Shown: one piece after another, positions 1 to 56,935 of the stretch
How positions within the stretch are numbered: position 1 is the stretch's first letter
How the letters are laid out: each line of letters opens with the position of its first letter
Source of the DNA: Azolla caroliniana
Taxonomy: Eukaryota; Plantae; Polypodiophyta
Direction of reading: 5' to 3'
Assembly: GCA_043228905.1 (NCBI GenBank)
Contig: JBHGNT010000014.1
Span: 7,936,001-8,000,000 of the forward strand
DNA length: 64,000 nucleotides
The notes under the pieces: model-generated
Told to the model about the DNA's origin: nothing
Databases searched by the model: none
What the model saw: only the letters and a program-made list of their open reading frames with translations
Position numbers and translations under genes: made by a program

Positions 1-961
1 CAAAGAGAAAAATAAAATTGTGAGATATCCCACATAGCCAGGAAATAAGGATCTCACCATATATAAGGTAGAACAAAAGCTATTATCTCTGTGTCCATGT
101 GTGGAGCATAGAGAGTTCAAGATGACTTGAACTAAGCTATTGATGAATGGGTGTGGCCTGGCTACTTGCAAAGGTTTTGGCCAACCAAAACCGGACCGAC
201 GACGGAGCTAGTGGCAACCGACATTTGGCAACAGAACCGGGAACTGGGATCCAACGTTCAGCAACGGAACCAGACGGTAACCAACATTCGGTGACCAGAC
301 GATAACCGACATCCGGCGATCGGACGGGATCCAGGATCCGGCAACCGGCGACCGGCGGCTAGATGGATAAATAAATAAATAAATATTTATACATATACAC
401 AAGGAGAGAAAGTAAGGATTTGAACCTTGCACCTCCAAGTTGAAAGCCAATAGGCTTACCACTAAGCCAACACATTTTCTTGGAATTATATTTTTATCAT
501 TGTAAGTTTACATGTAAATTCTCATACATGAGAACTAAAATGAGTGACATGGTTATCATGCACCACATGTAATACATGAGGACCAAATGGCAAACATGCA
601 TTTTATGCATGTCTTGTACCCTCAAATGCATGGGGGCATCTATAAAAGAGTGAAGGAATCAAGCAAAAGGGGGGATTTTTTATCACTTAAGCTTTGTACT
701 TTATATCAAAATTAATATTAAGAAGAAAATTCGTTATCCAATTGATGTATTAATCTTGTTCTTCAAATCTAAAATCAAGAGTTCAATCTTAATCTCTCTC
801 TCAATCTAAAGTCAAGCGTTCTATCTTATTTCAATCTCTCTCTCTTTCAATCTATCTTAATTCCTTTCTCGCTAAAGCTTGTGCAAACTTCGAGTCCTTC
901 CGATCCAGAACCCTGGCGGTTCCGCCTCACGATCCGCACGTAGTGATGGATCTTCACGACA
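1..961 (+). repeat. 5' LTR (start outside window) of non-chromovirus Ty3/gypsy element A
   Basis: Ends CACGACA at 961, has TATAAAA near 641, and is followed by a tRNA-Trp PBS and gag; the 5' part resembles solo LTR 44776-45705 (GATATCCCACATAG). Confidence 0.75.
403..475 (-). other. tRNA-derived module in LTR A (Pol III A/B boxes; possibly Glu-TTC-like loop)
   Basis: Minus strand reads TGGCTTAGTGGTAAGCC (perfect D-arm) ...CTTTCAA... GAGGTGCAAGGTTCAAATCCTTAC (T-arm/B-box); anticodon and acceptor stems decayed. Confidence 0.7.
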
Positions 962-969
962 TAATTAAG

Positions 970-987
970 TGGTGAACTCGACGTGAA
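970..987 (+). promoter_or_regulatory. Primer binding site, tRNA-Trp
   Basis: TGGTGAACTCGACGTGAA is complementary (1 mismatch) to the plant tRNA-Trp 3' end recalled as TTCACGTCGGGTTCACCA; 8 nt after the LTR. Confidence 0.75.
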
Positions 988-1892
988 AGAGGCGGCAAGA
1001 AGGATCAAATTGAGGATCAACCGATACTTGGAGATGGCATCCTCAAGCAACCAAGCGGGAGAGTTCGAAAGGATGATGCTGATCGTCGAACAAATGATGA
1101 GATCTCGAGACAACATTGTGACCGTGGAGAAGGCTGTTAATCGTGTCGTAGAGCTCGAGGGTCAATTTGACGGAAGGAACATTACGAAGTTCCTTGATGC
1201 ATATAGAAGGGAGATGAATCAGAGGGACGTGTCTGAAGCGCATCAAATCACAAGTTTCAAGAGAGTGGTCGCCAACAACATCCAAAGGCGCGTCATCGAG
1301 CTTCAAGAAGGGAAGACAATGTGGTCGGAGTTCGAGAAAGCGATATTAGCGGAGTTCGCGACGGAAGATTTGTCGAGGATGACTTGACATGCCTTGATGA
1401 AGTGGATAGAAAAGAAGAATAAGAAGATGAGCGCCTCAAGGGTGTACGACAAATTCGACCAAATGTTTCGTCGTCTCCCTGCCACAAAACAAATGCTACT
1501 TGAGGAGGAAAAAACTTTGTACTTCCTAAAGGTTGTGGATATAAAGGATAGACGAGAACTGGGTACTCTCCTCGAAGATGATACCCAAGCAAATGGGCTT
1601 GTGGCGGATTGGGTTGCGGTGAAGCGAGCATGATATAGGCCGACAAGCGTCGTCAGTGGGTTGATGATACCGACTTGGCGGGATCGACTGTTGTGGAGAA
1701 GACAAGACAACCGAAAGTAGTTGAGCCGCCCAAACAAAGCAGCATGGAAGAAAGGAAGATTGATGATGACATCATCAAAGAGCTAGCGAAGAGGTTCGAG
1801 ATGGTCATGCTAGCCAACATGAATCGTTGGGGCCCCAAAGGAAAAGAACCCTTTAGATGTGTGTGGTGTGATAACATGGACCACATGAGAAG
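983..1892 (+). pseudogene. gag: Disrupted, truncated gag of element A
   Basis: ORFs 983-1387, 1394-1633 and 1675-1944 align by eye with D gag (GQFDGRNITKFL, LYFLKVVD..R..LG.LLE, ADW.AVKR); degenerate zinc knuckle CVWCDNMDH. Confidence 0.8.
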
Positions 1893-2499
1893 TGCTTCTT
1901 TTGTGACCCACCGAAGCACTTTGGGAAAAGACCGATCCTGTTAGATCTCCTCGTCCGCTTGCTGGAAGGTTTCCCGCCTTTGCTGTCTTGCGGCTAGTCT
2001 TCTTCCTCGTTCGGTGACTTGGTCATTAGTTGGTCTAGACATCCATCCCCCGGTGTTCTCTGCTCACTGCAGGAATCATGGTCGCCAAATTATTGTTGAT
2101 CCTTGGCCGGACTAGCCACAACACAAGGTCTCCTCTCCCGGAACACTTCTCCAAAGGGGTGGTAAGGTTAGGATGCTTCCGTAATTAACATGCGTAGGAT
2201 CTTAATATTAACCACAGACGGCAAGTATACAAGACGCAAGCATGAATTACTCGATATATATATATATTATCTTCTATTACTTCTGTAAACATTACATCGG
2301 GTCGGATCCTTTTATAGGAATCCGGTGTCGTTACAAAACAGTGCCCTATCGGCAACCGGCTACGAATTGGTTCGGATTTGGATCGGTACAACTTACCGGA
2401 TCGGTCCCTTGGAGGAATAATTCTATCGAATTCTAAATATATATATTTCTCCGACTCGCCCTTTTCCCGCTTATCCTTTGGTCCTTAAACGGCCAACAA

Positions 2500-2573
2500 C
2501 AGAGAGGGAATTACTACTAAAAGATGCGAATTAGTAGTAAGAGAGAGAAAAGGGTGTAGAACTCACGAGATAA

Positions 2574-2604
<31 letters not shown>

Positions 2605-2936
2605 CAAAGAGAGGAGATAGATAGATTATATTATCGTCTTTGGAGGTCAAATATTATATTATATGAAGAGAAAGTACAAGAATAGCTATGAGGCTTAAGA
2701 CTAGTGTTGAACCGATTTGGTTTGAAATAATGCCTTGTGCCTCCTTTTATAGTGTTTTCAGAAGTACTCCTAAAGTTTCTAGAATGTTCCAAAGAAATCT
2801 GGAAACATACATCAATTTTCTATAGTGAAATAATAAATGAAAATAATATCTATCACATTACAATATATAGTCTAATGGGAAGGGCTCGACCCATGTAACA
2901 TAAGGTCATCAGTTCGAATCTTGTCATATAATGACA
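2500..2936 (-). repeat. Truncated LTR related to chromovirus C, with tRNA-like module at ~2865-2930 (+)
   Basis: Reverse complement resembles 10634-11078 (TGTCAT start, TATAAAAGGAGGCACAAGGCATT, CT microsatellite). Confidence 0.85.
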
Positions 2937-6840: not shown

Positions 6841-7436
6841 ACGAAAAGAAAGAAAGAACGAAAGAAAAAATAAATAGGAATTATATTGGCTAAAGAAATA
6901 AGTACGTGTTCAATTCCAATGCAAGAGGGCCCTTTATAAAATAGGGCTTGATTACAATGTGACAACTTCTAGTTGACCACAAGCTCAACAAAACATAAAT
7001 ACTAAATGCCCTTAGAGACAAGAGCAAATCCGAACATGGAGCAAGAAGACGAACACACGAGCACCACCTAAATGCCGACCCCAACGAACCATGACCACCC
7101 GAATGGCGAGCACACAGGCTTGCAACGACGAATAGGTTGAAGCAACATCGAATCAACGAATCTCGGGCTCACGAGCACCGTAAACGAGCACTTCGAGTGC
7201 CAAAGTGAAGAAGACGAGGATTGGCGATGAGGGGATGAAGGGGTATGAGATGGAGAGAAGTGGTGAAGAAGAAGATGAAGAGCTCTGAAGGAAAAATGGC
7301 GATAGTCTTATCCTCCCCAAAATGTCCTCCCAAATGAGCCCGCCTCGACCTCCTTTTATAGGAAAAAAATGGAAGGGGGTCGCCAATTTTGTCTTCAATA
7401 CAAAAGGAATAAAATTCCTTAAATCATGTTGCATTG

Positions 7437-7500
7437 TATGACCGGATTTGTACTATGCATCTATAGCTAGAAGTCAATGTAACTATCCAGTAGTCCATTA
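7437..7500 (-). other. Degenerate tRNA-Arg(TCT)-like module in the B 3' LTR
   Basis: Minus strand TGGACTACTGGATAGTTACATTGACTTCTAGCTATAGATGCATAGTACAAATCC; a better-preserved copy lies at 31345-31412. Confidence 0.5.
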
Positions 7501-7767
7501 ACTCTCTCTTATATGATATATAATTCTATATCTACTAATTCATAGCCTGCCTCCTCTCTACTTTTATCTCTCCTCTCTCTTAATTTTTACACGAGCTTCT
7601 ATACCTCCTTTCAACCCATTTTGCACACACATTGCACATTGCACATGCACATTTTGACCCCCCATTTTGTCGGTTTTTCCCACACTCGAGCACGCCACAT
7701 CACAACATCCACCCCCACCAAACCGCACATCCTCCAGTATGTACCAAGAATGGCGGGCTGAGGGTGG

Positions 7768-10633: not shown

Positions 10634-11078
10634 TGTCATGATATAGCAAGACTTGAACCCATGACCTTATGCTACATGGGTCGAGCTCTTACCATTAGAC
10701 TATGAATTGTAATTTGTAGGATATTATTTTCATTTATGCTTTATCATAAAAAAATGATGTATACTCCAGATCTCTCTGGAACATTCTAGAAGCTTTAGGA
10801 TTATTCCTAAAAACACTATAAAAGGAGGCACAAGGCATTGTTTTGAACCAAATTGGTTCAATGCCAGTCTTAAGCCTCTTAGCCATTTTGTACTTATCCT
10901 TCACATAATATATTGGCTGTTATCATCATCTCTCTCTCTCTCTCATCCTCGCTATCTCTCTTTTCGCTTCTCTCTCTCTCTCTCTCTCGGGAGTCTTACG
11001 TAGTTCCGTCCTCTTAGTACTAATAGTACTGCTCTTCTTTAGTACTAATTCCATCTCTGCTTAGTACTATTCCTGACA
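10634..11078 (+). repeat. 5' LTR of C
   Basis: 445 bp, highly similar to 23365-23821; TATAAAA at 10817. Confidence 0.95.
10641..10709 (-). other. tRNA-derived module at the start of C 5' LTR
   Basis: Minus strand TAGTCTAATGGTAAGAG (A-box) ...AAGGTCATGGGTTCAAGTC (variable loop plus B-box). Confidence 0.7.
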
Positions 11079-11092
11079 GTTTGAACCAATTT
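11079..11092 (+). promoter_or_regulatory. Self-priming (Tf1-type) PBS of C
   Basis: GTTTGAACCAATTT is complementary over 12 nt to AAATTGGTTCAA at 10850-10861, about 33 nt after the TATA; no TGG-type tRNA PBS. Confidence 0.7.
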
Positions 11093-11117
11093 GTCCTCCT
11101 ACGCTTTTCCCTATACT

Positions 11118-11913
11118 ATGGCTACTGTTAGCGCCCAAGAATATCAATCCGTTTTCTCCGAGCTACAATGCTTAAAAGAAAAATTTGTTGCCTTGGAACA
11201 AGAAAACCAACGGCTGATAGGGGATCTGCAACAAATCGCTCCAGAAAAGCAACAAACGCAGCAACAACATGGGGAGTTAGCGTTACAGGTGCAACAACTC
11301 GAAGTGGCATTGCAACAACAAGGATCAAGTCCCCAAGGATTTCATAAAGAGCCGAAGATTGGACTTCCTGTGAAATTTGATGGAATGCGATCGCAATTCA
11401 GGAGATTCCTTAATCAGGTACGATTAGTCCTCCAAATGCATCCTTCCCAATACCCCACTGATGCATCCCGAGTCGGCTTAATAGGCACGTTGCTTAGCGG
11501 CTCAGCCTTAGCATGGTTTGCTCCGCTTCTAGAAAAACAATCGCCCTTGCTTAATAACTTTGAAGATTTTATTAGTGAGTTCAAAGCGTGCTTTGGAAAC
11601 ACCGACAGCATCAGGACGGCGATCAACAAGATCCGGCGATTGCATCAAGGCGATCGTCCAGCCTCTGCCTACGCGGCGGATTTCCGCCTACCCTGGGATT
11701 TCCGCCTACCCTGGGAGCAGTTTCGCTATGGCCTGCGAAATGATGTCAAAGATCTACTTCTAACCTTCCCCGAAGAACCAAAGTCTCTTACGGAGGCAAT
11801 CAGTCGAGCGGTCCCATGTGACAACCGCCTTTTCGAACGGCATTCGGAACGTCAATTATAGATACCACGCGCTAGGCCGGAGCCCACTTACGCCGCAGTC
11901 ACGGCTAAACCGT
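11118..11913 (+). pseudogene. gag: gag N-terminal part of C
   Basis: Coiled-coil, then EPKIGLPVKFDG, LLSGSALAWF, L.QG.R....YAADF..FRYGL (sushi/Tcn1-type capsid). Confidence 0.88.
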
Positions 11914-12557
11914 TGTCGTGAAGATAACCGTCCCTTAGCGCAATCAGTGCATAGCGCGTGTGAACCGGCTCTTCACGCGTGCGCGCCCTTAATGTATATA
12001 ATAAGGAATTAAGTACGTAGGTATATCCTAGGTAGTTAGATTCGGTAGGTAGGAAGTAAATGAGGGAGACGGCTCCCTTCTTGACACTATAAAGGAGAGG
12101 GAGATGCAGGGAGAAGGGATAGGGCATTAAGAAGGACGAAGTGCTGTCGAACCGTAACCGAACGCTTCTCCTCTGATTCGTTCTCCATCGCTCTTCTCTG
12201 CAGGTTTTCGGGAGGCTCGCGCTGCTTTGAGGAACGCCCGTGTGCTTCCGGCAGCACCTCCAGCCTTTTCTCCTTTCGTGCGCAGACGAACAGGCATCGG
12301 CATCTGTTCGCCAGCCTGTTCGGTTGTAACCGCTCGCGTGCTCTATTGTGTATTTGTTATTCGTTAATATACAAACACTTGTGTCTCCCTGTCTCTGTGT
12401 CCATTCACGTCTTCTGTGTTGACGGGCCGTGCCCCTGTGTTTCTTTGCTCATACGTGACCGGGCGTCTCTCTCTTTCTCTTTCCCCTTCTATCACCTGCT
12501 CTTCGGTTCCCGGTGGTCCCGCCTCGTTTCTCCACGCACGCGCGTAGTAACGCGACA
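11914..12557 (+). repeat. 5' LTR of D
   Basis: 644 bp, direct repeat of 19017-19666. Confidence 0.95.
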
Positions 12558-12561
12558 TATT

Positions 12562-12579
12562 TGGTGAACCCGACATGAA
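12562..12579 (+). promoter_or_regulatory. Primer binding site, tRNA-Trp
   Basis: TGGTGAACCCGACATGAA, 17/18 complementary to the plant tRNA-Trp 3' end. Confidence 0.8.
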
Positions 12580-14721
12580 CAAGGCGGCAGAGGAGCAGAA
12601 GATGAGGGGGTCGGATCTTGCAGAGGCCATGGCTTCGGCCGTGGACCGAATAGTGAGCGCGCGCGAGGGCACCGGCGCCCTTGACAGGGCTATTGAGGCG
12701 ATCGTCGGTACGATCGGCCGGTTCAGTGGAAAGGATGCCACGAGTTATTTTGTGTCCTACCGGGCGGAGATGTTGATGAGGGATATTCCGGAAGAGAGGC
12801 GTCTTGCCGTATTCCCTCGAGTGGCGATGCCGGGCATCCATGCGGAGGTGCTCGAGGTCCGGGCGGAGAGCCGGACCTGGGAGGAGTTCGAAGGACGGCT
12901 CCTGGAGAAATACGGGCTGGATGACGCGCTTCCACTTTCGAAGCGGGGCTTCATGGAGTGGGTGGAGTCCCCCAACAAAGGAAGAAATGCGTCGGTACTC
13001 CTCCGGGAGTTTGAGGAACGCTTTGCACGCCTTTCGGCGCTCGATCGGACCGTTCTGGACACAAGTCGTGTCCTACTGTTTGTCAAATCGGTTGACGCAC
13101 GGGATCGGGGGCAAGTTGGCTCCTTACTGGAAACCGAAGACGGGCTGACGGCTGACTGGGCCGCGGTAAAAAGAGTCTGCGGCCGTTTTGACAAACGGTG
13201 GGAGTGGGCAGATACAAAGGCGACCGGGGCGGGACCTATCGCAGCAAGGAAGCTCGAACCGATACCGCAGGCGCGAAAGGAAGAGACCCGGGAGTTGCTC
13301 GAAACCGGTTCGGCTTCGACTGGCGTGGTCAGAGGCTCATCCGGGGGAACAACTTTGGAGGAGTTGACACGAGCGGTAAAGGATCTCCAGATCGCCCAGG
13401 CTCGGAGGGAAGGCAACGATCAGGCTTGTGACCGACGGCCTTCGGCAGGAAGTAGGTGCATGTGATGCGACGAGGTCGGCCACATCTGGAAAGACTACGG
13501 GGACTTTAGGCTTTGAGAAGCCGGGTGTACCTGTGGGAAGGTCGGGTGCATGCCAGCGATACCCGGAGGGCCCTAAACCGAAACGACGGGCGAGGAGGAA
13601 TGAAAAGGCTGATGGAAGAGGCGGCAGCCCGGCACGCGGAGACCGTCCACTACTCAGCGTCAGCCGGTATTCAGGTCGGAGGCAATGAGGCCCGGAAGGA
13701 GAGCAAAGCTGGGTTCTGGCCGACGGTACTGGAAGGCCTCGCCGCTCCCCGACTAAAGAAAGACGAGGCGGACCACGCGGAGAAGCGGGTCCAGGAGGTA
13801 ACCGGGTGGAGTGACCCGGTCGAAGAAAAGACGGGTTTCGTCGAAGCAGCTTGCCAGAACTACGAGGCTCTGGTTGAAGACAAACGGGTAGGTAAAACCG
13901 GAGGGGCCGGACCCTCACAGAGATACGAAACCCGATTCGGGCCGAAACGGAACGAGGTCGGTGAGTCCAGTGCCCGGGATAACCACAAGAAGGGCGGATA
14001 CCGTTTGGGCACGGAGATCGAAAGGACCACGGACCTACGAAAGGTCCTGGAAGAACGAATCCTCGACAGTAAAGTGGAACTGTCGTTGCGGGAGGTGCTC
14101 GGAATCGCCAAGAAGGAGTTCCACGACTCCATCGTGGACTTGGTGAAGAGGAGGAGGTTGTCGACGGAGGCAGAACCGGAAAGGCCGGTGGAGGTGCGGA
14201 CGGCGCACATAGAGGACATGGCGCTGGAAGACGAGTGGGCGGAGAGCCACTATTCGAGGCCACACTGGGCCCGAGCGACCACGGAAACCCCGGTGAAGAT
14301 CGGAGATGTTCAGGAACTGGTTGTGGCGCTGGTGGACCACGGTTCGGAAATAAACCTGATGTCCATGGACTTCTACAAGAAGGGGAAATGGCCGATGAAC
14401 ACTAAGCAAGGGTGGAAGATACGGGCGGCGACGCGCACCACCGAGAAACTACACGGGGCCTGCCCAAACGTGCGAGTCAAGATCGGCGACGTCGAGATAG
14501 ACCAACACTTCTTTGTGCAGGAGAAGTCCTCGCACCCGGTCATACTGGGAGAACCGTACATAACGGCAGCGCGAATGGAGACCAAGGTGCTGGACAACGG
14601 GTCGGCTTACGCGAGGGTCAAGAGTCAGGACGGGCGTCATTCGGTCCAGTTCCTGACAGTGCGACCGAACCACGAGCAAAACCGCGAGTCCCTCGGTGGC
14701 GAGAACCGGGAGGATTTTTAG
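12575..14721 (+). pseudogene. gag: gag-protease ORF of D, disrupted
   Basis: ORFs 12575-13465 and 13513-14721; knuckle CM*CDEVGHIWKD; protease LVDHGSEINLM ... VILGEPY. Confidence 0.88.
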
Positions 14722-15499
14722 AGAGGGCTGCCAAGGCGTGGGGCCGTGACAGTCCGGACAGTCCGGGAAAACCCCACAAATGTAAGATAGAAGCGAAACC
14801 GAAGAAATCTTGTACCATAAGTAGGAAGTTTTGTTTCTCCGACAACGGAGGGTGTACGATAGTCGGCGTTCGGAGTTCTCGGGCCCAGCGAGGAAATCAA
14901 TGGAGCCGTGGAGGCGGTCTCCTTCGACGATACCTTGGGAGTACTACGAGAGGTGGTCGGAGAGGGCCTTAAAGAGGACCGGACGATACCGGTTTGTTCA
15001 GAAGAGATGTACGAAGTCATCACAGACTTTAGTCGAGGGCTCGAGTCAGATCGGACGACCCGGAAGGTAAGGCCAGTCGCGGCACCCTTACCGGAGGGCA
15101 GCGAGTTGCGAATCAAAGGGGTCGCGACGGACCCCAGTTTACGAGATCCGGCCAGCATAGGACACGCCTTCACCTACAGAATGTACGGGAGCTGAAAATC
15201 AGTGGGGGCGGGTTCCTACTGCCGGCGGAAGAAGACCGGTTTCGGAAAATGCTCGGAAGGCATGGGAAAGCCTTCGCATTCTCACCGGGAGAGATCGGGT
15301 GCGTAGACCCGACGGTCGTGAAGCCGATGGTGATATTCACGGTACCGCATGTGCCGTGGAATCTCAAACCAATTCCGGTACCGAGAGCTCACATCCTGGA
15401 GCTGATGGAGCTGTTGAGGCAGAAAGTCGATATGGGCATCCTCGAACCGTCGAGTGCCCCGTACTCGAACCGGTGGTTTACTGTACCAAAGAAGAACGG
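14716..15499 (+). pseudogene. pol: pol N-terminal part of D
   Basis: RKVRPVA, FAFSPGEIG, HVPW, GILEPSSAPYSNRWFTVPKKNG; continues after the solo LTR as TLRFIQDL. Confidence 0.85.
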
Positions 15500-16313
15500 T
15501 GTCGTGCCTTTCGGCTCCGGATCGTTGCGTGAGTCGGGTGGGAACCACTGAGGTTTTTGACTAGGAGAAAGAAGAATATGAGATGAGGCTATTAATGAAT
15601 AGATTATTAGAAAGAGAGATAGAAATTTTGTGAATCCCACGAGTGTATTGTATTCGATTAATCAATATTTAGATAAGAATATGTATTTAGATTGAAAGAA
15701 AGATATAAGAAACTTGTGAATCCCACAAGTATAGATTATATTATTTTCGTGAATCCCACGATTATATTAATCGGTTGGTGTTTTCGGAAATATATCCAAT
15801 TTCCAAATATTTCACACACCTATTACATTGTGCTCCCCATCCTTATGTAGTGATGGGAGAGACTAAGCATAGCTACATGCTTTTTTTTTCTAATATGTTC
15901 ATGCACACTAAATGTGCATGTGATGCTTTTCTAATCCTTGCTTTTATTTGCTAAATATAGTGCTCATGCACGCTAGATGTGCATGAGTCACTTTTTAGTT
16001 GCTTGCGTTTTTCTATAAAATATTCACGCATGATTTACCTTTTAATAAAGGTAGGCGCAAATAAAGCACTTATAGTTATTAAATCTATTTATAGAACACT
16101 AAAGATAAGGTAGCATAATGGTAAAGTTGAGGTTTGGCTACGTGGAGGTACAAGGTTCAAATCCTGCCCTATGCACGTGATAAATATCTTGATATTCTTA
16201 TTTTATTTATTGGTGATAAATATCTTAATATTCTTATTTTATTTATTTATATGTAATTAAATCGGTTATATTATTTTTACTTTTTCACGTAGTGTACGAA
16301 ATACACTACGACA
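15500..16313 (-). mobile_element. Solo LTR (TGTCG-ended gypsy lineage) inserted in the RT of D
   Basis: TGTCGTG...TACGACA termini, perfect TSD ACGG, and the RT frame rejoins (KKNG|TLRF); AT-rich. Confidence 0.9.
16104..16174 (+). other. tRNA-derived module in solo LTR
   Basis: TAGCATAATGGT (A-box) ... GAGGTACAAGGTTCAAATCC (B-box); partial acceptor pairing ATAAGG/CCCTAT. Confidence 0.7.
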
Positions 16314-19016
16314 ACGGGACGTTGCGCTTCATTCAAGACCTGCAACCGGTCAACAGAGTGACCATTCGGAACGCAGGAATTGGACCAACGATAGACGAGT
16401 TCACAGAGGCCTTCGCCGGAAGGTCGATCTACTCGGTCGGTGATCTGTACTCGGGGTACGATCAGTTCCAACTAGCCGTGGAGAGCAGAGACATTACGAC
16501 GATGCGGAATCCTCTCGGCCTAGTGCGGATGTGTACCCTACTGCAAGGAGGGACGAACTCGGTGGCCCACATGGTGAATGCGAAGAACAAGGTGCTGAGG
16601 GATTGTATCCCAGACATCACCATGCCATTCTTGGACGACATCCCGATCAAGGGATGTCCGGTGGAGGAAAAGGACGAAACGATTAGATCGGACGGATGCC
16701 GGAAATTCGTGGCGACACACATTGGCGACTACGAGAAGGTGCTGCAGAGGCTAGAGGACGCGAGGCTCACCTTCTCCGAAGAGAAATCGGCCTTCGGGCA
16801 ATCGGAGATCATGGTCGTCGGACATCTATGCGGACCGTATGGCCGGAAACCGTCTCCGGCTAAGGTAGAAGCCATCTCCGCAATGAAGCCCGATTGTAAC
16901 TCGGTCACAGAGGTATGGAGGTTCTTGGGAGCATGCGCTTTCTACCACATATGGATCCTGCATTACGCCCACGTTGCCGAGCCGCTATACGAGTTGCTGA
17001 AAAAGGGGCGAAAATTCGAGTGGCGGGACGAGCATACGAAGTCGGTCCGAAAGATGAAGGAGGCTCTTGCTGCAGCTCCGGCACTCCGGAAGGCTGTCTA
17101 CGAGAAAGGCACTCCCATCTACATAACGGTAGATACGAGTCCGACCGGGATCGGATGGGTCGTCAACCAAGAAGATGAGGACGGCATTCGGTTCCCAATC
17201 CGGTTCGGCGCGAAGGTCCTCAACGAGCGACAGCGAGGATACGCCCAGGTTAAACGCAAACTCTGGGGTATCGTTTCGGCGGTAAAGGCCGATAAAGACT
17301 ATCTGATCGGGACAGAGGTGATTATCGAGACGGACTGCCTGCCGATTCTCGGCATGGTTTCCGGATGTGCAACCCCGGACCTGGCAATGCTCAGGTGGAT
17401 AGTGTACATCAAGTCCCTGGATCCGGAAATACGACACATTTCCGGGAAAGATAATGCCATGGCCGACATGCTTTCGAGGGCGCGATTCGACGACAAGGGC
17501 GGCATGGTTTCGGAAGACGAGGAAGTCGGCATAGACTTCTTCGAGGCGACCTACATAACAACCGAGGGAGGGAGCACTCCGGCGCTTAACGATTTCGACG
17601 AGAGCAAGTACAACGGGGAGTGGCTAAAGATTGGGGGATTCTTAAGGACGATGACGTTGAACGCGTCATGGACAAAGGACGAGGTGAACCGGATCCGGAA
17701 GAAAGCGTTCCGATTCTTTCTCCGGGACGGATACTTGTGGAAGCACCCGAAGAAGAGAAACGGCATCCCGCTCCGAGTAATGGCGATGAAGGAGGAACAG
17801 GAGGAGTTACTGAAGGCCTACCACGATAGCCCCTGGGCTGGACACTGTGGAACGTGGGCCACGTTCGAGAAACTAAAGGGGAAGTACTGGTGGCCGGGAC
17901 TGTACCGGGACGTGCATCGGTTCGTCACAACTTGTGAGAGCTGTTAGATACACTCCATAGTCCGACATCGGGACGAGCTTCACCCTACATACCCTCCGGC
18001 CATCCACTTCAAATGGATGGTAGATTTGGTGACGATGCCGATGGGCGTAGGGCAGATGCGATATCTGGTGCTGGCCCGGGAGGACCTGACGAACCAGGTG
18101 GAAGGCCGAGCCCTGCAAAACAAAACGACCGCGGCCGTGTGTCGGTTCCTGATCGAGGACGTGATATGCCGGTACGGGTGCGTCGGGAAGATCGTGGCTG
18201 ACCGCGGGGAGTTGGACGCCGAAGAGGCTGAGGAGCTGTTCGACCGGTTAGGGGTCAAGCTCTCGCTCACCACAGCGTACAATCCGGAGCACGGACACGG
18301 ACCGATCGTCAAAGCGTTAGTCCGGGCATGTAGAGGCCAGGTCGGGAACTGGCCACAACTGTTACCTTATGCCTTGTGGGCGGACAGGACAACACACAGT
18401 TCGGTAACCGGGTGCATGCCGTCAGAGCTCATGTTCGGACAGAAGCCGATCATGCCAATGGAACGGACGATCTCCTCTTGGGCGACAGTAGACTGGAGAG
18501 ACGAGATGAGTCGGGAAGAACTGCTAGCAGTGCGTATATGGCAGCTCGAGCGGAGGCCAGAGGACATGGAACGAGCGGTGGAGAGACTTCGGACGGCGAG
18601 CATGAAGAACAAAGCCTGGTTCGACCGAACGCGCCCGCTCCAACCGAAGAAAATCGAGGAAGGCGACTGGGTGCTAGTCTATGACAGCAGCCTCGACAAC
18701 CAGCACCGAGCAACATGGAAGTTTGCGAAGCGGTGGTTCGGGCCTTACGTGGTAACGAGCGCCAACGACAACGAGACGTATCACCTGGCGGAACTCGACG
18801 GTACGAGGATGGCGATACCGGTAGCAGGGAAGCGGATCAAAGCATTCAAGAAGCGCCACGACGGTGAACCGGATCTAGGAGGCCTGGACAGCGACGACGA
18901 ACAGTCCGAAACGGAGGACGAACCGATGGACGAAGAACCGGAACCCGGATCGGTTTTCTCCAACCAGAACACAATTTTGGCGCATACCGGTGGATGCGCG
19001 GTTAGGTGGGGGCGGA
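16314..19016 (+). pseudogene. pol: RT-RNaseH-integrase of D
   Basis: ORFs 16292-17947 and 18017-19024: DLYSGYDQ, FLDD, VDTSPTGIG, ETDC, H..GH..C..C, DDE core, GPY; no chromodomain. Confidence 0.92.
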
Positions 19017-19666
19017 TGTCGTGAAGAAAACCGTCCCTTAGCGCAATCAGTGCATAGCGCACGTGAACCGGCTCTTCACGCATGCGCGCCCTTAATGTAT
19101 ATAATAAGTAATTAAGTACGTAGGTATATCCTAGGTAGTTAGATTTGGTAGGTAGGAAGTAAATGAGGGAGACGGCTCCCTTCTTGACGCTATAAAGGAG
19201 AGGGAGATGCAGGGAGAAGGGATAGGGCATTAAGGAGGACGAAGTGCTGTTGGACCGTAACCGAACGCTTCTCCTCTGATTCGTTCTCCATCGCTCTTCT
19301 CTACAGGTTTTCAGGAGGCTCGCGCTGCTCCAAGGAACGCCCGTGTGCTTCCAGCAGCACCTCCAGCATTTTCTCCTTTCATGCGCAGACGAACAGGCAT
19401 CGACATCTGTTCGCCGGCCTGTTCGGTTGTAACCGCTCGCGGGCTCTGTTGTGTATTTGTTATTCGTTAATATACAAACACTTGTGTCTCCCTGTCTCTG
19501 TGTCCATTCGCGTCTTCTGTGTTGACGGGCCGTGCCCCTGTGTTTCTTTGCTCATACGTGACCGGGCGTCTCTGTCTTTCTCTTTCCCCTTCTATCACCT
19601 GCTCTTCGATTCAAGACCCCAGTGGTCCCGCCTCGTTTCTCCACGCACGCGTGTAGTAACGTGACA
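19017..19666 (+). repeat. 3' LTR of D
   Basis: Direct repeat of 11914-12557, preceded by the PPT. Confidence 0.95.
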
Positions 19667-19670
19667 CCGT

Positions 19671-20017
19671 TTGCACGAGACATACCTCAAGCAAATACTT
19701 TGACACCGATGGAGTTCGATACCATGCGTCGACGCGGCCCGTTATCGGAAGAAGAAAAGCAACGACGACGTGCAAATCGATTATGTCTTTATTGCGATGG
19801 ACCAGGGCATATCGCAATCAATTGTCCCCATAGGCCAAGAAGACAGGTAAATCAAATTGTAGCCTGTACTAAACCCGAGTCAATTATTCCGTTAGGAGTG
19901 TTTGATAGTATTAATAGTACTAATAGAGTGTTTGATAGTATTCATAGTACTAATAGCCCAAGTTTCTCAAATAAATTTGAAATCCTTAGTCAATTAGATG
20001 AAGAGTTAAACGATTGA
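19671..20017 (+). pseudogene. gag: gag C-terminal part of C
   Basis: PMEFD, zinc knuckle CLYCDGPGHIAINC. Confidence 0.88.
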
Positions 20018-23000
20018 GTCCAGCCAAAATAGGAGTCGTTTGGTTGGACAGCAGCCCTAGATTTGTACAGCCCATTAGTGGTTCCATTCCTTCCAAGCAA
20101 GTTAGCAATGTGTTCCTAGCCCAAGTCATTGTTAGTACTAAAAGTACTCCCCTAGTACCCGTCCTAGCACTTTTAGATTCCGGAGCTAATTCCTGTTTCA
20201 TGGATCGAAATTTTGCCCAAGCTTCTCAGATATCCTTAAGAAAACTTCCTTGTCCCGCATCTGTAGTAGTCATTGATGGTCGTCCCATTGCTTCCGGGAA
20301 TATTGTAGAAGAATCAGAACCCATTCAAGTTGTCTTAGGTAGGTTTGTGTGTGTAATATCATTTAATATATTTAGTAGTCCAGAGCATCCCATTGTCCTA
20401 GGATTACCTTGGTTTGAATTTCATAATCCAGCCATAGATTGGAGAACAAGAGAAGTCCGATATCGACCACCCCAAGAATCAACTCACCGAGTTTCGACCA
20501 TTTCACTCCATCAACTACGCGAAGAAGGACCCAAGGAGGCAATGTTCCTATTTGCAATATCAGTACATCCTTCCAGCACTATTAAGGACTCCTCAATACA
20601 ACTTTCGGCAAAATATCATCCTTATGCCGATGTATTTGACAAGGTAAAAGCTGGTACCCTTCCTCATCACCGTCCCTTTGACTGTCCCATCGATTTACAA
20701 CCAGGAACCGAGCCACCATGGGGACCAATTTAGAACTTGTCACCTACCAAGTTAGAAGTCCTCCGAGCCTACATAGAGGAGAACTTGGCAAGCGGGTTCA
20801 TCCGTCATTTGAAATCTCCGGCCGGTGCACCCATCTTCTTTGTCAAGAAGAAAGATGGCTCAGTTCGTCTTCTCGTTGATTACCGCGGATTGAATAAAGT
20901 CACCATCCGGAATAGGTATGCACTTCCTCTTATATCAATTCTTTTAGAGCGAGTTAATGGTGCCAAGGTTTTTACTAAAATCGACCTACGAGGAGCGTAT
21001 AACCTTGTGCGGATCCGACCGGGAGATAAGTGGAAGACCGCCTTTCGCACGCGGTATGGGCATTTCGAGTATACTATTATGCCGTTTGGCCTAACCAATG
21101 CACCCGCAGTCTTCCAACACATGGCAAATGATATATTCAGAGACCTCTTGGATATCTGTTTGATCATTTATCTGGATGATCTATTGATTTATTCGAAGAC
21201 CCAGGAAGAGCACGATTCTCATGTACTATTAGTACTAAAGCGACTCCGCGAGAATGGTCTTTATGCCAAGCTAGAAAAATGTAGCTTTGACTGCAAGCAA
21301 GTGGAATTTCTAGGCTACGCCATCTCCTCAAAGGGCATCGCCATGGATCCAGCTAAAATCCAAACTGTACTAGAGTGGCAAATTCCACGGTCGGTACGAG
21401 ATGTACAATGTTTTTTAGGTTTTGCTAACTTCTACCGTAAGTTTATACAGGATTACTCGAAGATTATTTTACCTCTCACACAACTTACGAAGAAGGGCCA
21501 AGCATTTCTTTGGTCCATAGAAGCAAATATGGCTTTTCGGCATCTTAAGAAAGCCTTTACATCAACACCGATTCTAGCTCATGTGGATACAAGCAAACCA
21601 TTCATCATGGAGGCCGACGCATCAGATTTCGCCTAAATCGACGGCAAGCTCGGTGGGCACAATTCCTCACGTGTTTCGACTTCAAAATCACATATCGACC
21701 GGGGAAGCAGCAAGGAAAAGCAGATGCACTATCACGGCGTTCATATCTTGCACCTCGTCCTGGTGACGCAACATTTGATAATCAAAAGCAAGTAATCTTG
21801 GGACCAACACGATTGCACACTACGCGGATTTTTCACACCCCGATGGATTCACGGATTACCGATGACATACGTGCAACCTTGAAGACGGATAGTTTTGCTC
21901 AAGACATCCTGGCACACATTGATACTTCTCGGGCATCCTGTACTCAGTCTCAACAACCAGGTATTGACTACCGACAATTCGAATATCATGATGGTTTGTT
22001 ATTCTTTAAAAAGCGCGTATATGTCCCCGATTGCTCCTGTCACCTTCAAATCGTCCAGCATTGTCACGACACTCATACGGCGGGACATTTCGGTAGTACT
22101 AAGATGTTGGAGCTAGTGCAACGATCTTTTTGGTGGTCCCACATGCGCCGTTTTGTTGATGACTACGTTCGGATCTGTGATGCTTGCTGCCGAGCAAAGG
22201 TGCCACGACACCATCCATATGGCTTCTTGGAACCCTTACCGATTCCAAGTAAGCCGTGGCAGTCTATTTGTCTTGATTTTATCACAGATCTGCCGGTCTC
22301 GAAGGGGTTTGATGCTATCCTAACCGTCGTTGATCGATATACGAAGATGGCACATTTTGTGCCGTGTACTAAAGCCATCACTAGCGAGGAAACTGCCGCT
22401 CTTGTTATGCGTGAGGTATTTCGGCATCATGGCCTCCCAGACAGTATTATTAGTGACCGAGGACTGCAATTTGTCTCCAAATTTTGGCAACATCTCTTCA
22501 AGATGCTCAAGGTCTCCTGCAACCTCTCCTCCGGCTACCATCCTCAGACCGACGGGCAGGCAGAACGAACAAACCAAACGCTAGAGCAATATCTCCGGTG
22601 TTTCCGGAGTTATCAACAAGACGATTGGGCCGAGATTCTCCACTTTGCGGAGTTTGTGTATAATAATGCTATTCACTCCTCGTCTCGGGTCTCCCCATTT
22701 TTCACTTATACCGGTTTCCATCCTCGCTGGTCGGTGATCGACACCCCGGAGCTACCTACCAACCCTCGTGCCGAGGATCATTTGGAGAGGCTACGCAAGA
22801 TCCAGATGGATCTCTCTACTCACCTTCGTCATGCTCAACACACACAGAAGACTTATGCGGATCGTCATCGGATTCCCTCCTCTTTTGCCATCGGAGATCG
22901 AGTATGGCTCTTACGTCGTCACATCAAGACTACTTGACCGTGCGACAAGTTGGATTATCGACGACTCGGTCCCTTCCGTATTATGGGTAAGATTAATGAT

Positions 23001-23353
23001 GTCACATTCCGCCTTGATCTCCCTCCGCAGCTTCAGATACATCCGGTTTTCCATTGTTCTATCTTGAACCTTATAAAGCAAACACCATTCTCGATCGTGT
23101 GACACCACCGCCGCCCCCACTGGAGTTGGACGCCGGCCCGGAGTATGAAGTTGTTGCCATCCTCGATTCCAAACTTGTTCGCAACAAACTTTATTACTTG
23201 GTCGATTGGCTCGGTTATAGTCCGAGCGAACGTACTTGGGAACCCGTCGAGCATGTTGCCAATGCACAGGATCTTCTTGCTGATTTCCACCGAAAGTATC
23301 CAAACAAACCCGGCCCGCAATTAGCGCCGACTCGTTCCACTCGTCGTCTTTAA
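20014..23353 (+). pseudogene. pol: pol of C: protease, RT, truncated RNase H, integrase, chromodomain
   Basis: LLDSGANS; MPFGLTNAP, IYLDD; EADASDFA joined directly to LNRRQAR; CHD..AGHFG..C..C, DFITDLP, SDRG, QTDGQAE; EYEVVAIL..YLVDWLGY....TWEP. Confidence 0.93.
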
Positions 23354-23364
23354 GGGGGAGATAG

Positions 23365-23698
23365 TGTCATGATATGGCAAGACTCGAACCCATGACCTTA
23401 TGCTACATGGGTCGAGCTCTTACCATTAGACTATGAATTGTAATTTTTAGGATATTATTTTCATTTATGTTTTATCATAGAAAATTGATGTATATTCCAG
23501 ATCTCTCTGGAACATTCTAGAAGCTTCAGGATTATTCCTAAAAACACTATAAAAGGAGGCACAAGGCATTGTTTGGAACCAAATTGGTTCAACACCAGTA
23601 TTAAGCCTCTTAGCCATTTTGTACTTATCCTTCACATAATAGATTGGTTGTTATCATCATCTCTCTCTCTCTCTCTCATCCTTGCTATCTCTCTTTTC

Positions 23699-23733
<35 letters not shown>

Positions 23734-23821
23734 GAGTCTTACGTAGTCCCGTCCTCTTAGTACTAATAGTACTGCTCTTCTTTAGTACTAATTCCATCTC
23801 TGCTTAGTACTATTCCTGACA
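23365..23821 (+). repeat. 3' LTR of C (tRNA-like module at ~23372-23440, minus strand)
   Basis: Direct repeat of 10634-11078; B-box GGGTTCGAGTC intact on minus. Confidence 0.95.
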
Positions 23822-30142: not shown

Positions 30143-31344
30143 TTATGAGGAGAGGTGCATGGGCAAGCCCGAATGCTCCCTCGACACAAGACAACCAAAC
30201 GTACAACGAATACACAAACGCATGCACGAATACGCGTACGTCTTTATGAGGAGAGGTCCATGGGCACGCCCGAAATGCTCCCTCCTCACAAGACGGTCGT
30301 GTGTACAAGGAAGACACAAACACATGCACAAATGCTCGTATGCCTTTATGACGAGGAGAGGTTCATGGTCATGCCCGAAACGCTCCCTGATCACAAGACG
30401 ACCAAACGTACAAGGAAGACACAAACACACACACAAATGCTCGTACGTCTTTATGACGAGGAGAGGTGCATGGGCACGCCTGAAACGCTCCCTCGTCACA
30501 AGATGACCGAACGTACAAGGAAGACACAAACACACGCACAAATGCTCATACACCTTTACGAGTAGGAGAGGTGCATGGGCATGCCCGAAACGCTCCCACG
30601 TCAGAAGACGGCCTAACATACAAGGAAGACACAAACACACACACAAAATGCTCGTACGCCTTTATGAGGAGGAGAGGTGCATGGGCACGCCCGAAACGCT
30701 CCCTTGTCACAAGACGACCGAACGTACAAGGAAGACCCAAGCACACACAGAAATGCTTGTATGCCTTTATGAGGAGGAGAGGTGCATGTGCACGCCCGAA
30801 ACGCTCCATCGTGACAAGACGGCCGAACGTACAAGTGGACGAGAACAAAGAAAGAATGAAAGAAATAAAAACCCACGAATAATATTAGCTAAATAAATAA
30901 ATATGTGTTCAATTTGAACGCAAGAGGGCGCTTTATAAAATAGGGCTTGATTAATTTGTGGCAACTTCTAGTTAACCACAAGCTCAACAAAACATAAATA
31001 CTAAATGCCCTTAGAGACGAGAGCAAATCCGAACACACGAGCACCACAAAAATGCCGACCCCAACGAACCACGACCACCCGAATGGCGAGAACACGGGTT
31101 CGCAACGACAAACGGGGTTCGCAACGTCGAACCAACGAATCTCGGGCTCACGAGAACCGTAAATGAGCACTTGGAGTGCCAATGAAAAGAAGAAGAGTAC
31201 GGGCGATGAGGGGATGAAGGGGTATGAGATGGAGAGAAGTGGTGAAGAAGAAGGTGAAGAGCTCCGATAGAAAAATGGCGATAGGCTCCTCCTCCCAAAT
31301 GAGCCCCCCTCGACCTCCTTTTATAGGAAAAAAAAGAAAGGGTC

Positions 31345-31412
31345 GACATACCGAATTTGACCTTTGTACCTCTAACTAGAAGTCAATGTGACTATCCACT
31401 AGTCCATTAACT
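31345..31412 (-). other. tRNA-Arg(TCT)-like module in the B 5' LTR
   Basis: Minus strand TGGACTAGTGGATAGTC (perfect D-arm) ACATTGA-CTTCTAG-TTAGA GGTACAAAGGTCAAATTC; resembles plant tRNA-Arg(UCU) recalled as TGGCCTAATGGATAAGGCGTCTGACTTCTAATCAGA. Confidence 0.6.
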
Positions 31413-31653
31413 CTCTTTTATATAATATGTAATTCTATATCTACTAATTCATAGCCTGCCTCCTCTCTACTTTTTATCTCTTGTCTCTCTTACTTTTTAC
31501 ACGAGCTTCAATGCCTCCTTTCCACCCTTTCTTTTCCTTTTTCTTTTGCATGTGCACAATTAATTGCCTTTGTGTGCACACACATTGCACATGCACATTT
31601 TGATCCCCCCTTACGCCGGTTTTTCCCACACTCGAGCACGGCACATCACGACA

Positions 31654-32453: not shown

Positions 32454-32845
32454 TGTTATAGACATATGCCACGGAGGAAGGTAGGGATTGAACCCATGAC
32501 CCTATGGTCTCTATTGGCAAACCCTACCAATTGAGCTACGTATGCATCCTTGTACCAAATCCAACTTCATGTAGTATAGATGGAAATTGGAAGTTCCTAG
32601 CTTGCATGCATCCACATTTCTAGCTTGCACACATTCTCGTGCATTCTATATTGCATCTCATGCAGGCTCTATTTCTAGATGGCTTACATAGCCCTACGTT
32701 AGTGTATAAATACTCATGTGCACCTTGATTCTAATCAAGGTAAACAACACCAGTTACGGATTCTATAAGTTGAGTTCTTGTTCTTTTCCTATGTCTTGTT
32801 TTCTAGTCTTTTCTTCACTCTACTATATTATACTTGTCCGTGACA
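32454..32845 (+). repeat. 3' LTR of E (related to the F LTRs)
   Basis: Follows PPT TAGAGGGAGGATAA; TGTTA...GTCCGTGACA; TATAAATA..GTGCACCTTGATT shared with 56511-56948. Confidence 0.85.
32474..32545 (-). other. tRNA-derived module in the E LTR
   Basis: Minus strand TAGCTCAATTGGTAGGGT ... AGGGTCATGGGTTCAATCCC. Confidence 0.72.
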
Positions 32846-54699: not shown

Positions 54700-55329
54700 T
54701 TAAAGTCCATGGATAGAGAGGCCCATGGTCAACATGGAATTAGGAGTGGGTGGAGAAGACTGTATGGCCTATGGTGAGCCGTTTTGGACCAAGTGCATAC
54801 ATCACATGTCTTGATAAATTCCTTGACAAATTTACAATGTTGGGGCCACCAAAACCGCTGAGATATATGGCGAAACTGATATATATGGCATTGTGAGTGG
54901 AGAATTGTGGGAGGAAGACGGAAAGCCTCGAGTCCCATGTTCCTCCTGTCGAAGCTCAAAAAGACAATTATCACATTGAGCGGCTTGGGAGATTACCTGA
55001 AACAACGATGTGGCTCCAGATAGTTTAAGAGAAGAGTCTTGACATCATTTCGGATGCCTCGATGAAACTGGTTGCATAAGGCTTGGTCATCCCAGCTGAC
55101 ATCGCACGCGATCTGACAAAACTCTAAAGCATCAACGGAAGCTGGACGAGAGCCTTGTTGTAAGGAATAGAGCTTCGTGAGTGCCGGTTTTTCTCAAGCT
55201 CCGCAAGAAAGGCAGGAAAGTTGTCTAAGAGTGTGGATGAGGTCCCGATCAAAGGTGCAAACCATGCTTGTGCTAGCCTAGAGAAGGGTTCCAATGAGGC
55301 CGACTCGAGAGAAATCGCTAGCATAACGT

Positions 55330-56191
55330 TGTCGCGGTATTCCATGAGTACGTGTAGGATCCAAGGCGGGACTGCGGGGATCTTGGACTAGGGAGTAGAG
55401 GGTACCGCAAGACTGACTCCCTCCGTGACCGGCCGCACTAGAGTAGCACAAAACCGGAACATTACCGGTTGGGTACAAGAGGCTACTGAACAGAAGGGAG
55501 GGCGAGATGGATAGAGAGAGAGAAAGAGCGCACTCAACACCGGCCCAACTCACACCCTTATGTACAAAAACGAAAGAAAGAAAACACTAAAGACACCCAT
55601 ACAGACACCGAATGCAGAACCCTGCACATGTAAATTTACAAGAACAAGATACAATACTAGCTTCGAGCCGGACCTAGGAAGCTCAGGATACAACAATTAC
55701 CTACTGCCAAGCCGCCGGTCAGGGAGCTCTCGGGCTCGTCGCACCGAACGGGGTCTTGCATAGGAGACAAGGGCCGAAACAGAACCGCCAGATGCCAGGA
55801 CTCGCTCACACAAAACGACGAAGAAGAAGCAGAACTAGATGAAACCCTAGGCAAGAGAAAATCAAGAGAAAATCAAGAGAAAATCAAGAGAAAATAAGAG
55901 AAAGAAACTAACTTAATTCAAACCTAACGGTATACCCTCCTAACTCAAAATGGGCAACCCTTTTACAAGGGACCCTCCTTTCCTTTTATACCACAAGAAG
56001 GGAGGTGCGTAACAATATGGGATAAATCCCGATTTAGATGGGATTCCCTGTCCCGACTTGACTCCTACTCAGCGCCATAAAGGCACCCCTATTATTCACG
56101 CATCTTTTACAAGGGTAAGTGCACATGATGCACTCCGCCGATTCTTCCAATATTCCCCGGTTTCTCACCATGGCCCGGAATCTTCACGACA
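55330..56191 (-). mobile_element. Solo LTR, TGTCG-ended gypsy lineage
   Basis: TGTCGCG...CACGACA, perfect TSD ACGT, GGCGGGAC motif as in the B/D LTRs; internal AAGAGAAAATC x4. Confidence 0.87.
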
Positions 56192-56497
56192 ACGTTGGGG
56201 TTGTTCGCAGATGATAAGCTGAATTTGATTAAGGAAGCCGCAAAGATGTGCCCTTGAGCCATTGAATTTGTCAGGTAGGCTGACACTAGGTTCAAGGACA
56301 TATGAATGGGAAGAGCAAGGGGTTGGGCTAGGTGTTGACGAAGGGTGAGGCTCGACGAGTGGTGGGTTGTTGGATGTGCCATTTTGAAGCTCTTGTAATG
56401 ATTGATGAAGGCTTTCATTTTCTAGTTGAAGTTGTTCCAAGTCTGCCATTACTTGGTTTAAGTTGTTGACCGAGTCGCACATGGTAACAAGAACAAG

Positions 56498-56510
56498 AAG
56501 GTGAACAAAC
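56498..56510 (-). promoter_or_regulatory. Self-priming PBS of F
   Basis: Minus GTTTGTTCACCTT is complementary to AAGGTGAACAA (56670-56660), 32 nt after TATAAATA. Confidence 0.7.
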
Positions 56511-56863
56511 TGTCACGGACGAGGCCATAGACAATTAGACAAGGCTAAATACTAAGAGAGAGGGAGAGAGAGAGAGAGAGAGCATAGACAAGAGAGCAAG
56601 AAAGAGAGAAAGAAAATAGACAAGAGGGAGAGAACTCAATTATGCTTCCATAACCGGTGTTGTTCACCTTGATTGTAATCAAGGTGCACCCAAGTATTTA
56701 TACAATAATGTGGAGATATGCATGTAAGCTAGGAAACATCGAGAGAGTGAAAGGAAACTTCTAGAGAGTGCATGAAGATCCATTTTCTAGAAATTTCTTG
56801 AAAGTTCTAGTGATTAACCTACAATGCAATAAGTTGAATCTTATACAATACAATAATGCATAG

Positions 56864-56935
56864 ATGGATGTAGCTCAGTTGGTGATGTTGCCGAATAAGA
56901 CAAGGAGGTCATGGGTTCAACCCCCTACATTCCAT
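56864..56935 (+). other. tRNA-derived module in the F 5' LTR
   Basis: GGATG-TAGCTCAGTTGGT ... GAGGTCATGGGTTCAACCCC-TACATTCC, partial acceptor stem GGATG/CATTC. Confidence 0.75.

Follow-up and report, generated by a model that had tools for sequence, protein, structure and literature searches.

The window, the whole 64-kb stretch of Azolla DNA that was analysed, contains LTRs of several Ty3/gypsy families, the U3 of which carries a module with the layout of a type 2 Pol III promoter, that is, an A box and a B box at tRNA spacing (weak in family B). The features are listed below, with the direction of each module given relative to its element.

405..476, minus strand: module in the U3 of the family A LTR, A box and B box, antisense, 23.0 bits
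227 bp before the window (start seen in L091) to 962: family A LTR, TATA at 640 on the plus strand
2861..2932, plus strand: family C module at the 5′ end of a minus-strand LTR (about 2500-2936; self-alignment), antisense, 23.4 bits
7433..7504, minus strand: decayed family B module, sense, 3.8 bits, in the minus-strand LTR 5062-7707
10638..10709, minus strand: module at the 5′ end of the chromovirus C 5′ LTR, antisense, 28.2 bits, 107 bp upstream of the TATA at 10816
10634..23821, plus strand: family C chromovirus, LTRs 10634-11078 and 23365-23821 (93.7% identity)
11914..19666, plus strand: family D element, LTRs without module (negative control), chromodomain not found
16104..16175, plus strand: module of a family G solo LTR (15500-16313, minus strand), antisense, 20.5 bits
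23369..23440, minus strand: module at the 5′ end of the C 3′ LTR, antisense, directed into the PPT, 30.2 bits
28572..28644, plus strand: LTR-C-derived module in a DNA transposon, 25.4 bits
31342..31413, minus strand: decayed family B module, sense, 6.1 bits, in the minus-strand LTR 26281-31653
32473..32545, minus strand: module near the 5′ end of the family E 3′ LTR, antisense, 34.0 bits
32454-32862: family E 3′ LTR, TATA at 32704
56864..56935, plus strand: family F module near the 5′ end of the minus-strand LTR 56511-56947, antisense, 32.1 bits

The C element is bordered by the target site duplication AGCAA/GGCAA and contains gag, PR, RT, RH, INT and a chromodomain in broken reading frames, with the D and G elements nested within it. 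The DNA transposon (about 26671-30140) has terminal inverted repeats, is inserted into a B LTR and bears a second, truncated copy of the module at about 28270-28322. The B module at 31342..31413 has a damaged B box and has lost about 60 bp downstream, while that at 7433..7504 is homologous to the better copies L172-L200 and to the modules of families A and K, the B module being tied to those of A and K by this homology.

Modules were scored with a two-box (A/B) model built solely from the host's own tRNA genes, using a cut-off of 20 bits. Eight matches in the window reached at least this score, against a mean of 0.07 and a maximum of 1 in 60 block-wise dinucleotide shuffles. Seven of them are modules noticed in an earlier note on this DNA, the coordinates of which proved accurate to a few bases; the eighth, in the DNA transposon, was absent from it. 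The modules that the note had placed in A, C, G and E/F scored 20.5–34.0 bits (median of the host tRNA genes in the same model, 32 bits), but the two B copies of the window, which it had also listed, are decayed. Its other observations at this level were borne out as well: the boxes lie in U3 upstream of the TATA, the modules of A, C, E, F and G are antisense and those of B sense, and the surrounding LTRs barely align apart from the boxes at tRNA spacing.

In the genome, the module is a fixed part of the U3 in the coding families A, C, E, F and G; it is weak in B and was also found in families J, K and M. In each family's 30 best copies from the genome, the window's own included, at least 15 bits were reached by all 30 of C, 29 of E and 28 each of A and G. 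The genomic relatives of B have a better B box and a median of 10.5 bits (at least 15 bits in 5/30, at least 20 bits in 0/30), and a C11-type family has lost the GG of the A box. The module is antisense in A, C, E, F, G, J, K and M and sense in B alone; orientation and number vary, K, a relative of B, being antisense and J having two modules. Integrase was found in C, E, M, A, G, J and B, and reverse transcriptase too in C, A, G and J. The carriers are mostly gag-pol elements of 5–8 kb; family G has both coding and gag-only members, and the latter also exceed 3 kb. The integrase of C bears a chromodomain (PF00385, E 2.9e-14), which was not found in the short elements of A, B, D, G and J. The absence of the module from copia LTRs and from D, also noted earlier, held: none of the 16 copia LTR pairs reached 10 bits, none of the six D-type LTRs had a credible module, and families D, N and H lack it. 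An Atlas search with the D reverse transcriptase returned no lineage name. With regard to a free-standing SINE2 family with body, tail and TSD, 40 matches lay outside a tRNA-Pro array in 1.08 Mb; 35 of them were in LTR-type clusters, and the remaining five comprised one in a DNA transposon, one tRNA-Met-like sequence beside organelle-type sequence and three unassigned matches.

Despite their layout, the modules are not tRNA genes. This possibility was rejected because ARAGORN detected no tRNA at them and Rfam gave no tRNA match at E ≤ 10 for the window, C or F; on A, Rfam returned a weak tRNA-Sec match (16.9 bits, E 0.31). The acceptor stem paired at 0.29–0.46 compared with 0.93 in real tRNAs, and the anticodon stem at 0.13–0.44 compared with 0.88. 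Both stems thus pair at chance level and the cloverleaf is lost, which points to DNA binding rather than to an RNA fold. The earlier description of tRNA-shaped cassettes therefore stands for the box pair and its spacing, but not for tRNA structure. A conserved stem fold was also considered and found unconvincing, since 2 of 15 stem tests exceeded column shuffles nominally, with margins of 2 and 6 points, and such shuffles take no account of relatedness.

The middles of the modules form two groups, C/E/F/M and A/B/G/K, with J outside clear grouping. The two groups correspond to one chromovirus and one chromodomain-less clade of the integrase tree; the earlier note had placed the LTRs in chromovirus and non-chromovirus lineages. 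Given this parallel between module types and integrase tree, a history of two or three old captures with subsequent inheritance, the source being a tRNA gene or the head of a tRNA-derived SINE, would fit better than the repeated capture in five families proposed in the earlier note. The best z-scores in a search for the source tRNA were 5.7 for C and 5.2 for M against Ile(UAU), and 3–4 for the others; because a control sequence from D, which has no module, scored as high as 3.2 and not all host tRNAs are in the set, no source is named. A retained primer tRNA is an unlikely origin for C because C primes itself, from a site at 10849 with a 13-nt complement.

Selection was examined on nine invariant bases chosen beforehand from tRNA knowledge (T8, A14, G18, G19, G53, T54, T55, C56 and A58). 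In trees of 167 copies in four groups, changes were assigned by parsimony to internal or tip branches. The nine bases showed 1 internal and 37 tip changes, compared with 86 and 137 at positions 20–43 (Fisher p 1.4e-6) and 349 and 614 in the U3 flank (p 2.0e-6). The promoter bases are therefore under purifying selection while the elements replicate, and the boxes are better conserved than the stems, as noticed earlier, and than the flanks. When B and the C11-type copies, which had been left out, were added (202 copies), 5 internal changes were counted versus 35.1 for base-matched sites (p 1e-5). In the CpG control within the B box, G57 and A57, both of which fit GGTTCRA, were swapped six times on internal branches, while the C56-to-T changes number ten on tips and one on an internal branch. 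Among 23 related LTRs of metagenome contigs, retrieved without an A-box condition and perhaps from the same species, T8, A14, G18 and G19 matched the reference in 87–96% and positions 9, 11 and 12 in 43–52%. The tree test replaces an earlier conservation test (p 0.19 for C), which included misaligned flanks and truncated copies.

Family B, taken by itself, shows no selection signal (2 internal and 9 tip changes versus 7 and 32), and G18 and G19 were altered on internal branches in B and the C11-type family. C56T occurs in both LTRs of one A element and is common to several old G copies, in which parsimony assigns it to tips. Bases 44–52 (variable loop and T stem) are fairly conserved too (16 internal, 34 tip), which is not a clear prediction of TFIIIC binding.

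The modules may bear on the open question of how LTR retrotransposons manage to be transcribed after insertion into heterochromatin. We consider a TFIIIC/Pol III barrier or open-chromatin element the best reading, with a probability of roughly 0.45. The A-box/B-box pair, carried in U3 by coding Ty3/gypsy elements of two lineages, would be bound by TFIIIC, and probably by TFIIIB and Pol III as well, on that side of the Pol II promoter which faces the flank; the TATA of this promoter shows no internal-branch change in C, E/F, A and B. The bound module could then act as a barrier or nucleosome-free patch and help a new copy to be transcribed in heterochromatin. The functional model is the cen1 tDNA barrier of S. 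pombe, where TFIIIC and Pol III are recruited through the A and B boxes; the barrier depends on the A box and on Pol III, and its orientation is immaterial (PMC2040200). It is, however, formed by a genuine tRNA gene of the host that stays in one place, and it was demonstrated experimentally, whereas here a mobile, non-folding plant copy is judged by sequence. Heterochromatin targeting has been proposed for moss chromoviruses (PMC7466625). An insulator role is plausible. Against it, families D, N and H and all copia elements lack the module and are nevertheless abundant or young, so that success does not depend on it, and a review of plant barriers names, in its available text, no plant tDNA or TFIIIC barrier (PMC9540200). 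Methylation of the B-box CpG could block binding at most copies. The antisense bias, seen in every family but B, is left unexplained by an orientation-free barrier. The wider proposal that two distant coding Ty3/gypsy lineages each insulate themselves with a captured tRNA promoter, the bound TFIIIC/Pol III serving as a portable heterochromatin barrier, is put forward tentatively, with the odds against it.

Alternatively, the Pol III transcript itself may matter, as a short, mostly antisense U3 RNA by which the element tunes its silencing or its copy number, or as a decoy. The same antisense bias speaks for it, together with an A box as conserved as the B box, AT-rich DNA upstream of the module and, in B, G, J and K, a TTTT at 83–107 nt past T8. 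Moreover, foamy viruses keep a U3 Pol III miRNA cassette that aids replication (PMC7693620). Yet neither a conserved fold nor a fixed module middle was seen, and in C, E, F and M the LTR ends before any TTTT occurs, so that each of their 5′ LTRs would yield a different read-through RNA. We regard this explanation as unlikely, if the strongest of the alternatives. TFIIIC might also be bound for other ends, as a plain Pol II promoter activator, for nuclear positioning or as an aid to integration at the cDNA end. The modules of C, E, F and M lie within about 20 bp of the LTR end on which integrase acts, and T8 is 166–171 bp from the TATA in E, F, M and A; this distance is 114 bp in C, however, and the modules of A, B, G, J and K lie about 140–640 bp from the end. 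Modules were found within 200 bp in 0 of 70 5′ outer flanks (one 14.5-bit chance match) and 0 of 29 3′ outer flanks and are therefore not landing pads, nor was a Ty3-like pile-up of insertions seen at them. This explanation is likewise doubtful and ranks next.

That the modules are neutral relics of old tRNA or SINE insertions, hitch-hiking in LTRs, agrees with their being broken as tRNAs, with their lack in D, N and H, with the missing signal in B and with the decay of the copies amplified in the DNA transposon, where C56T is found in 16 of 39. It is contradicted by the excess of tip changes at the nine bases and by tRNA-spaced boxes kept between LTRs that otherwise barely align, so that for C, E/F, A and G it is largely refuted and overall improbable. 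Least credible of all, and very improbable, is that the module drives the element's genomic RNA via Pol III, in the manner of Cassandra and of the proposal for Helenus, which has the same conserved box motifs (PMC10886601), since the direction is wrong in all families but B, B has a TTTT about 30 nt past its B box, the sense strand of C has 18 runs of at least four T in 3.7 kb, and the self-priming site of C sets the RNA start about 33 bp past the TATA.

The closest known system is the Helenus TRIMs, or TRIMp3 (Kojima 2024, PMC10886601). The earlier note knew of no description of such a system, but this paper already reports tRNA-like promoters in the LTRs of non-coding TRIMs. As in the present elements, both LTRs of Helenus contain a tRNA-like sequence in which the A and B boxes are conserved and which is no functional tRNA, and multiple origins via SINE insertion are proposed for it (PMC10886601). 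Unlike the carriers described here, which have a conserved TATA, Helenus elements are non-coding and 311–1263 bp long, and in the supplement LTRs examined the tRNA part is in sense (PMC10886601). According to the same source, which analysed TRIMs alone, Selaginella is the sole plant case and autonomous partners are argued to use Pol II necessarily; "not a few" Repbase LTRs are said there to resemble part of a tRNA (PMC10886601), so single coding cases may be catalogued in Repbase. Cassandra TRIMs, named as the plant exception to Pol II transcription (PMC12786077), also hold the Pol III promoter of a small-RNA gene inside a plant LTR, but theirs is 5S-derived (type 1), lies in sense, makes the RNA of the element and belongs to a non-coding element (PMC10886601, PMC12786077). 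Foamy viruses resemble the present case in combining a U3 Pol III unit with a coding retroelement and a retained Pol II promoter; their product, however, is a hairpin miRNA with host targets (PMC7693620), whereas the modules are tRNA-shaped, mostly antisense and without a detected conserved fold. By description, C can be likened to Tcn1 of mosses and club-mosses (chromodomain, self-priming) and A, B, D, G and J to Phygy (short, chromodomain not found); the available description of these lineages makes no mention of a tRNA-like U3 module (PMC6317226).

The modules extend the tRNA-in-LTR arrangement from tiny TRIMs to coding elements, in which the promoter cannot simply make the genomic RNA. The density of about 35 matches per Mb, an upper bound for the genome as the samples are TE-rich, implies thousands of potential TFIIIC sites, which could affect chromatin domains and the supply of Pol III factors. 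If self-insulation is true, thousands of Pol III sites would be scattered genome-wide, far above the number of host tRNA genes. The LTRs offer a ready test system, with nine selected bases, sister families that differ in whether they carry the module, inversions and duplications that arose naturally, and young copies. The chromodomain-less-type module pattern had no match in viral contigs. Of 120 metagenome matches, the 80 listed were analysed; about half of these were C- or M-type LTRs, and the others were genuine tRNA genes, chance matches or members of an unrelated family that resembles SINEs. A comparison of LTR C with the contigs of four runs, which registers presence only and neither strand nor level, revealed related LTRs in three of them.

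The tRNA-like modules, ~70-bp A-box/B-box cassettes in the U3 of Ty3/gypsy LTRs, are real, selected and widespread. The window consists of nested LTR retrotransposons within a genome of 523 Mb, and its elements were delimited by self-alignment, Pfam and reading:

10634-23821: C, a chromovirus, with D inserted inside it and a solo LTR of G inside D

The LTRs of E and F are related to each other and of chromovirus type; no chromodomain was found in the lineage holding A, B, D and G. Self-priming chromoviruses and Phygy-like elements, types treated in PMC6317226, both occur here. In the B LTRs a 105-bp repeat forms long arrays past the TATA, on its downstream side (5300-6840 and 30140-30835).

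ARAGORN and Rfam made no call on the modules. A two-box model was trained on 18 nuclear and organelle-type tRNA genes of the host, with the modules kept out of training, and in the window it returned 8 matches of at least 20 bits versus 0.07 in shuffled sequences (n = 60). Seven were modules already named in the earlier note, while the eighth was a fragment of the C LTR within a DNA transposon. The two B modules in the window scored just 3.8 and 6.1 bits, and among the best 30 genomic copies per family at least 15 bits was reached by 5 in B (30 in C, 29 in E, 28 in A and 28 in G). When copies were retrieved through LTR sequence outside the module and counted by eye, low scorers included, the module was present in 13 of 16 C, 14 of 15 A (one J-type) and 17 of 18 G copies, and in 8 of 10 of the E/F group, three of them weak and of the C11 type, which has lost the A-box GG; the copies lacking it looked truncated.

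Selection was assessed on copy trees, in which changes on internal branches have passed replication and those on tips are mostly decay after insertion. Four groups with 167 copies in all went into the test. It excluded 17 of the sites retrieved, 4 of the C11 type and 13 that were truncated or non-homologous (a J-type site among the latter), as well as exact duplicates and copies lying at the end of a locus. The nine tRNA-invariant promoter bases (T8, A14, G18, G19, G53, T54, T55, C56, A58) changed once on internal branches and 37 times on tips, against 349 and 614 changes in the U3 flank and 86 and 137 in the module middle (positions 20-43), which bears out the suspected better preservation of the boxes. 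The branch assignments are limited by the crudeness of parsimony and FastTree and by blurring through LTR pairs and recombination; many copies had been retrieved as best matches to queries that contain the module, which biases the set but not towards the boxes specifically. With C11-type copies and family B included, 5 internal changes were observed versus 35.1 expected (p 1e-5); B on its own gave no selection signal in this test. G57/A57 swaps occurred six times on internal branches, and 10 of the 11 C56T changes fell on tips. A partly independent check came from metagenome contigs, in which 23 LTRs of C or M type, retrieved via the LTR end and B box only, kept T8, A14, G18 and G19 in 87-96%.

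The constrained bases are those that TFIIIC reads in DNA. Pairing in the acceptor and anticodon stems is at chance level, and that in the D and T stems is 0.57-0.83 with unconvincing covariation. The fold is gone and the Pol II TATA is retained; the genomic RNA cannot be a Pol III product. Outside G, where no TATA was located, the module lies about 80-300 bp upstream of the TATA. In C, a 13-nt self-priming complement puts the RNA start ~33 bp after the TATA, so that Pol II starts downstream of the module. C, E, F and M have the module at the end of the LTR, and A, B, G, J and K have it farther in. As to function, we infer that the module may act as a barrier or open-chromatin element, by analogy with the fission-yeast tDNA barrier in the available text of PMC2040200 (probability about 0.45). 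The antisense orientation, noted earlier for most families, extends to every carrier except B, and B and K have a common LTR start yet modules in opposite directions; that an antisense RNA yielded by the module is the functional product seems rather unlikely. Slightly less probable still is some other role of TFIIIC at these bases. No sign of a landing pad for insertions was seen, with modules at 0 of 70 outer 5' and 0 of 29 outer 3' element flanks.

The closest known system is Helenus, a group of non-coding TRIMs with tRNA-like sequence in their LTRs, described by Kojima (PMC10886601), who also states that 'not a few' Repbase LTRs resemble parts of tRNA. Neither the results of the literature searches nor passages of PMC6317226, PMC7466625, PMC13578239, PMC9540200, PMC12786077 and 10.1101/827881 describe promoters of tRNA type under selection in the U3 of coding plant Ty3/gypsy elements.

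A 1,084-kb sample contained 47 matches of at least 20 bits; 7 made up a tRNA-Pro-like array, and LTR-type clusters accounted for 35 of the remaining 40. Because the sample was picked from TE-rich regions, its density of ~35 per Mb sets an upper limit. Carriers newly recognised are K, J with its two modules, and M, which is of chromovirus type. The absence reported for copia and D was upheld (0 of 16 copia LTR pairs; none credible in 6 D LTRs), and the module was also absent from 4 LTR pairs of family H, with none credible in 4 LTRs of family N. H elements (G000:C13:10507701-10516921, C20:7401281-7411104 and two more) have no purine tract or U3 module, and show PBS-like sequence at both ends. 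Two gag-only, module-bearing G elements (G000:C10:12020420-12023936, C13:10500493-10503608) are very young, with LTRs 99.87% alike, and 4-bp TSDs appear to flank G insertions. Another A/B-box element lies inside a repeat at G000:C7:13816292 and C19:8023455 (26.3 and 19.8 bits). In a short element at G000:C11:11430878-11432817, with no coding domains detected, the LTR opens with a hairpin around the B box, and loss of the A-box GG has left a B-box-only state.

A tree built from 36 single integrase matches joined E, M and C in one clade (88/91, not starred) adjoining the module-less N; A with B and J with G fell in the other lineage. D takes no definite position there, so the tree does not distinguish its loss in D from a later gain. 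The module middles sort into C/E/F/M and A/B/G/K, J fitting neither clearly. Judged from these sequence groupings, two or three captures would fit better than the five separate ones first proposed. Neither a source tRNA, among the incomplete host set compared, nor a parent SINE was found.

A piece of the C LTR has been acquired by a DNA transposon that is present in high copy and has terminal inverted repeats (about 26671-30140 in the window; L425-L438; L336, L358), and the transposon's module-bearing end has multiplied as tandem units of ~330 bp. There are 1-4 modules per 3.3-kb locus, 39 across 14 loci, and copies are inverted in two metagenome contigs. C56T in 16 of the 39 suggests that these modules are decaying. 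Nuclear tRNA genes, together with pseudogenes, were also seen repeated in tandem:

L001, L002, L018, L019, L212, L214-L217; G000:C3:9.32-9.35 Mb: tRNA arrays of Lys(UUU), Arg(UCU), Ile(UAU) and Thr(UGU), plus a degenerate Pro-like array

Several metagenome contigs (L313, L314, L321, L324, L340 and others) carry an unrelated SINE-like family with a tRNA head.
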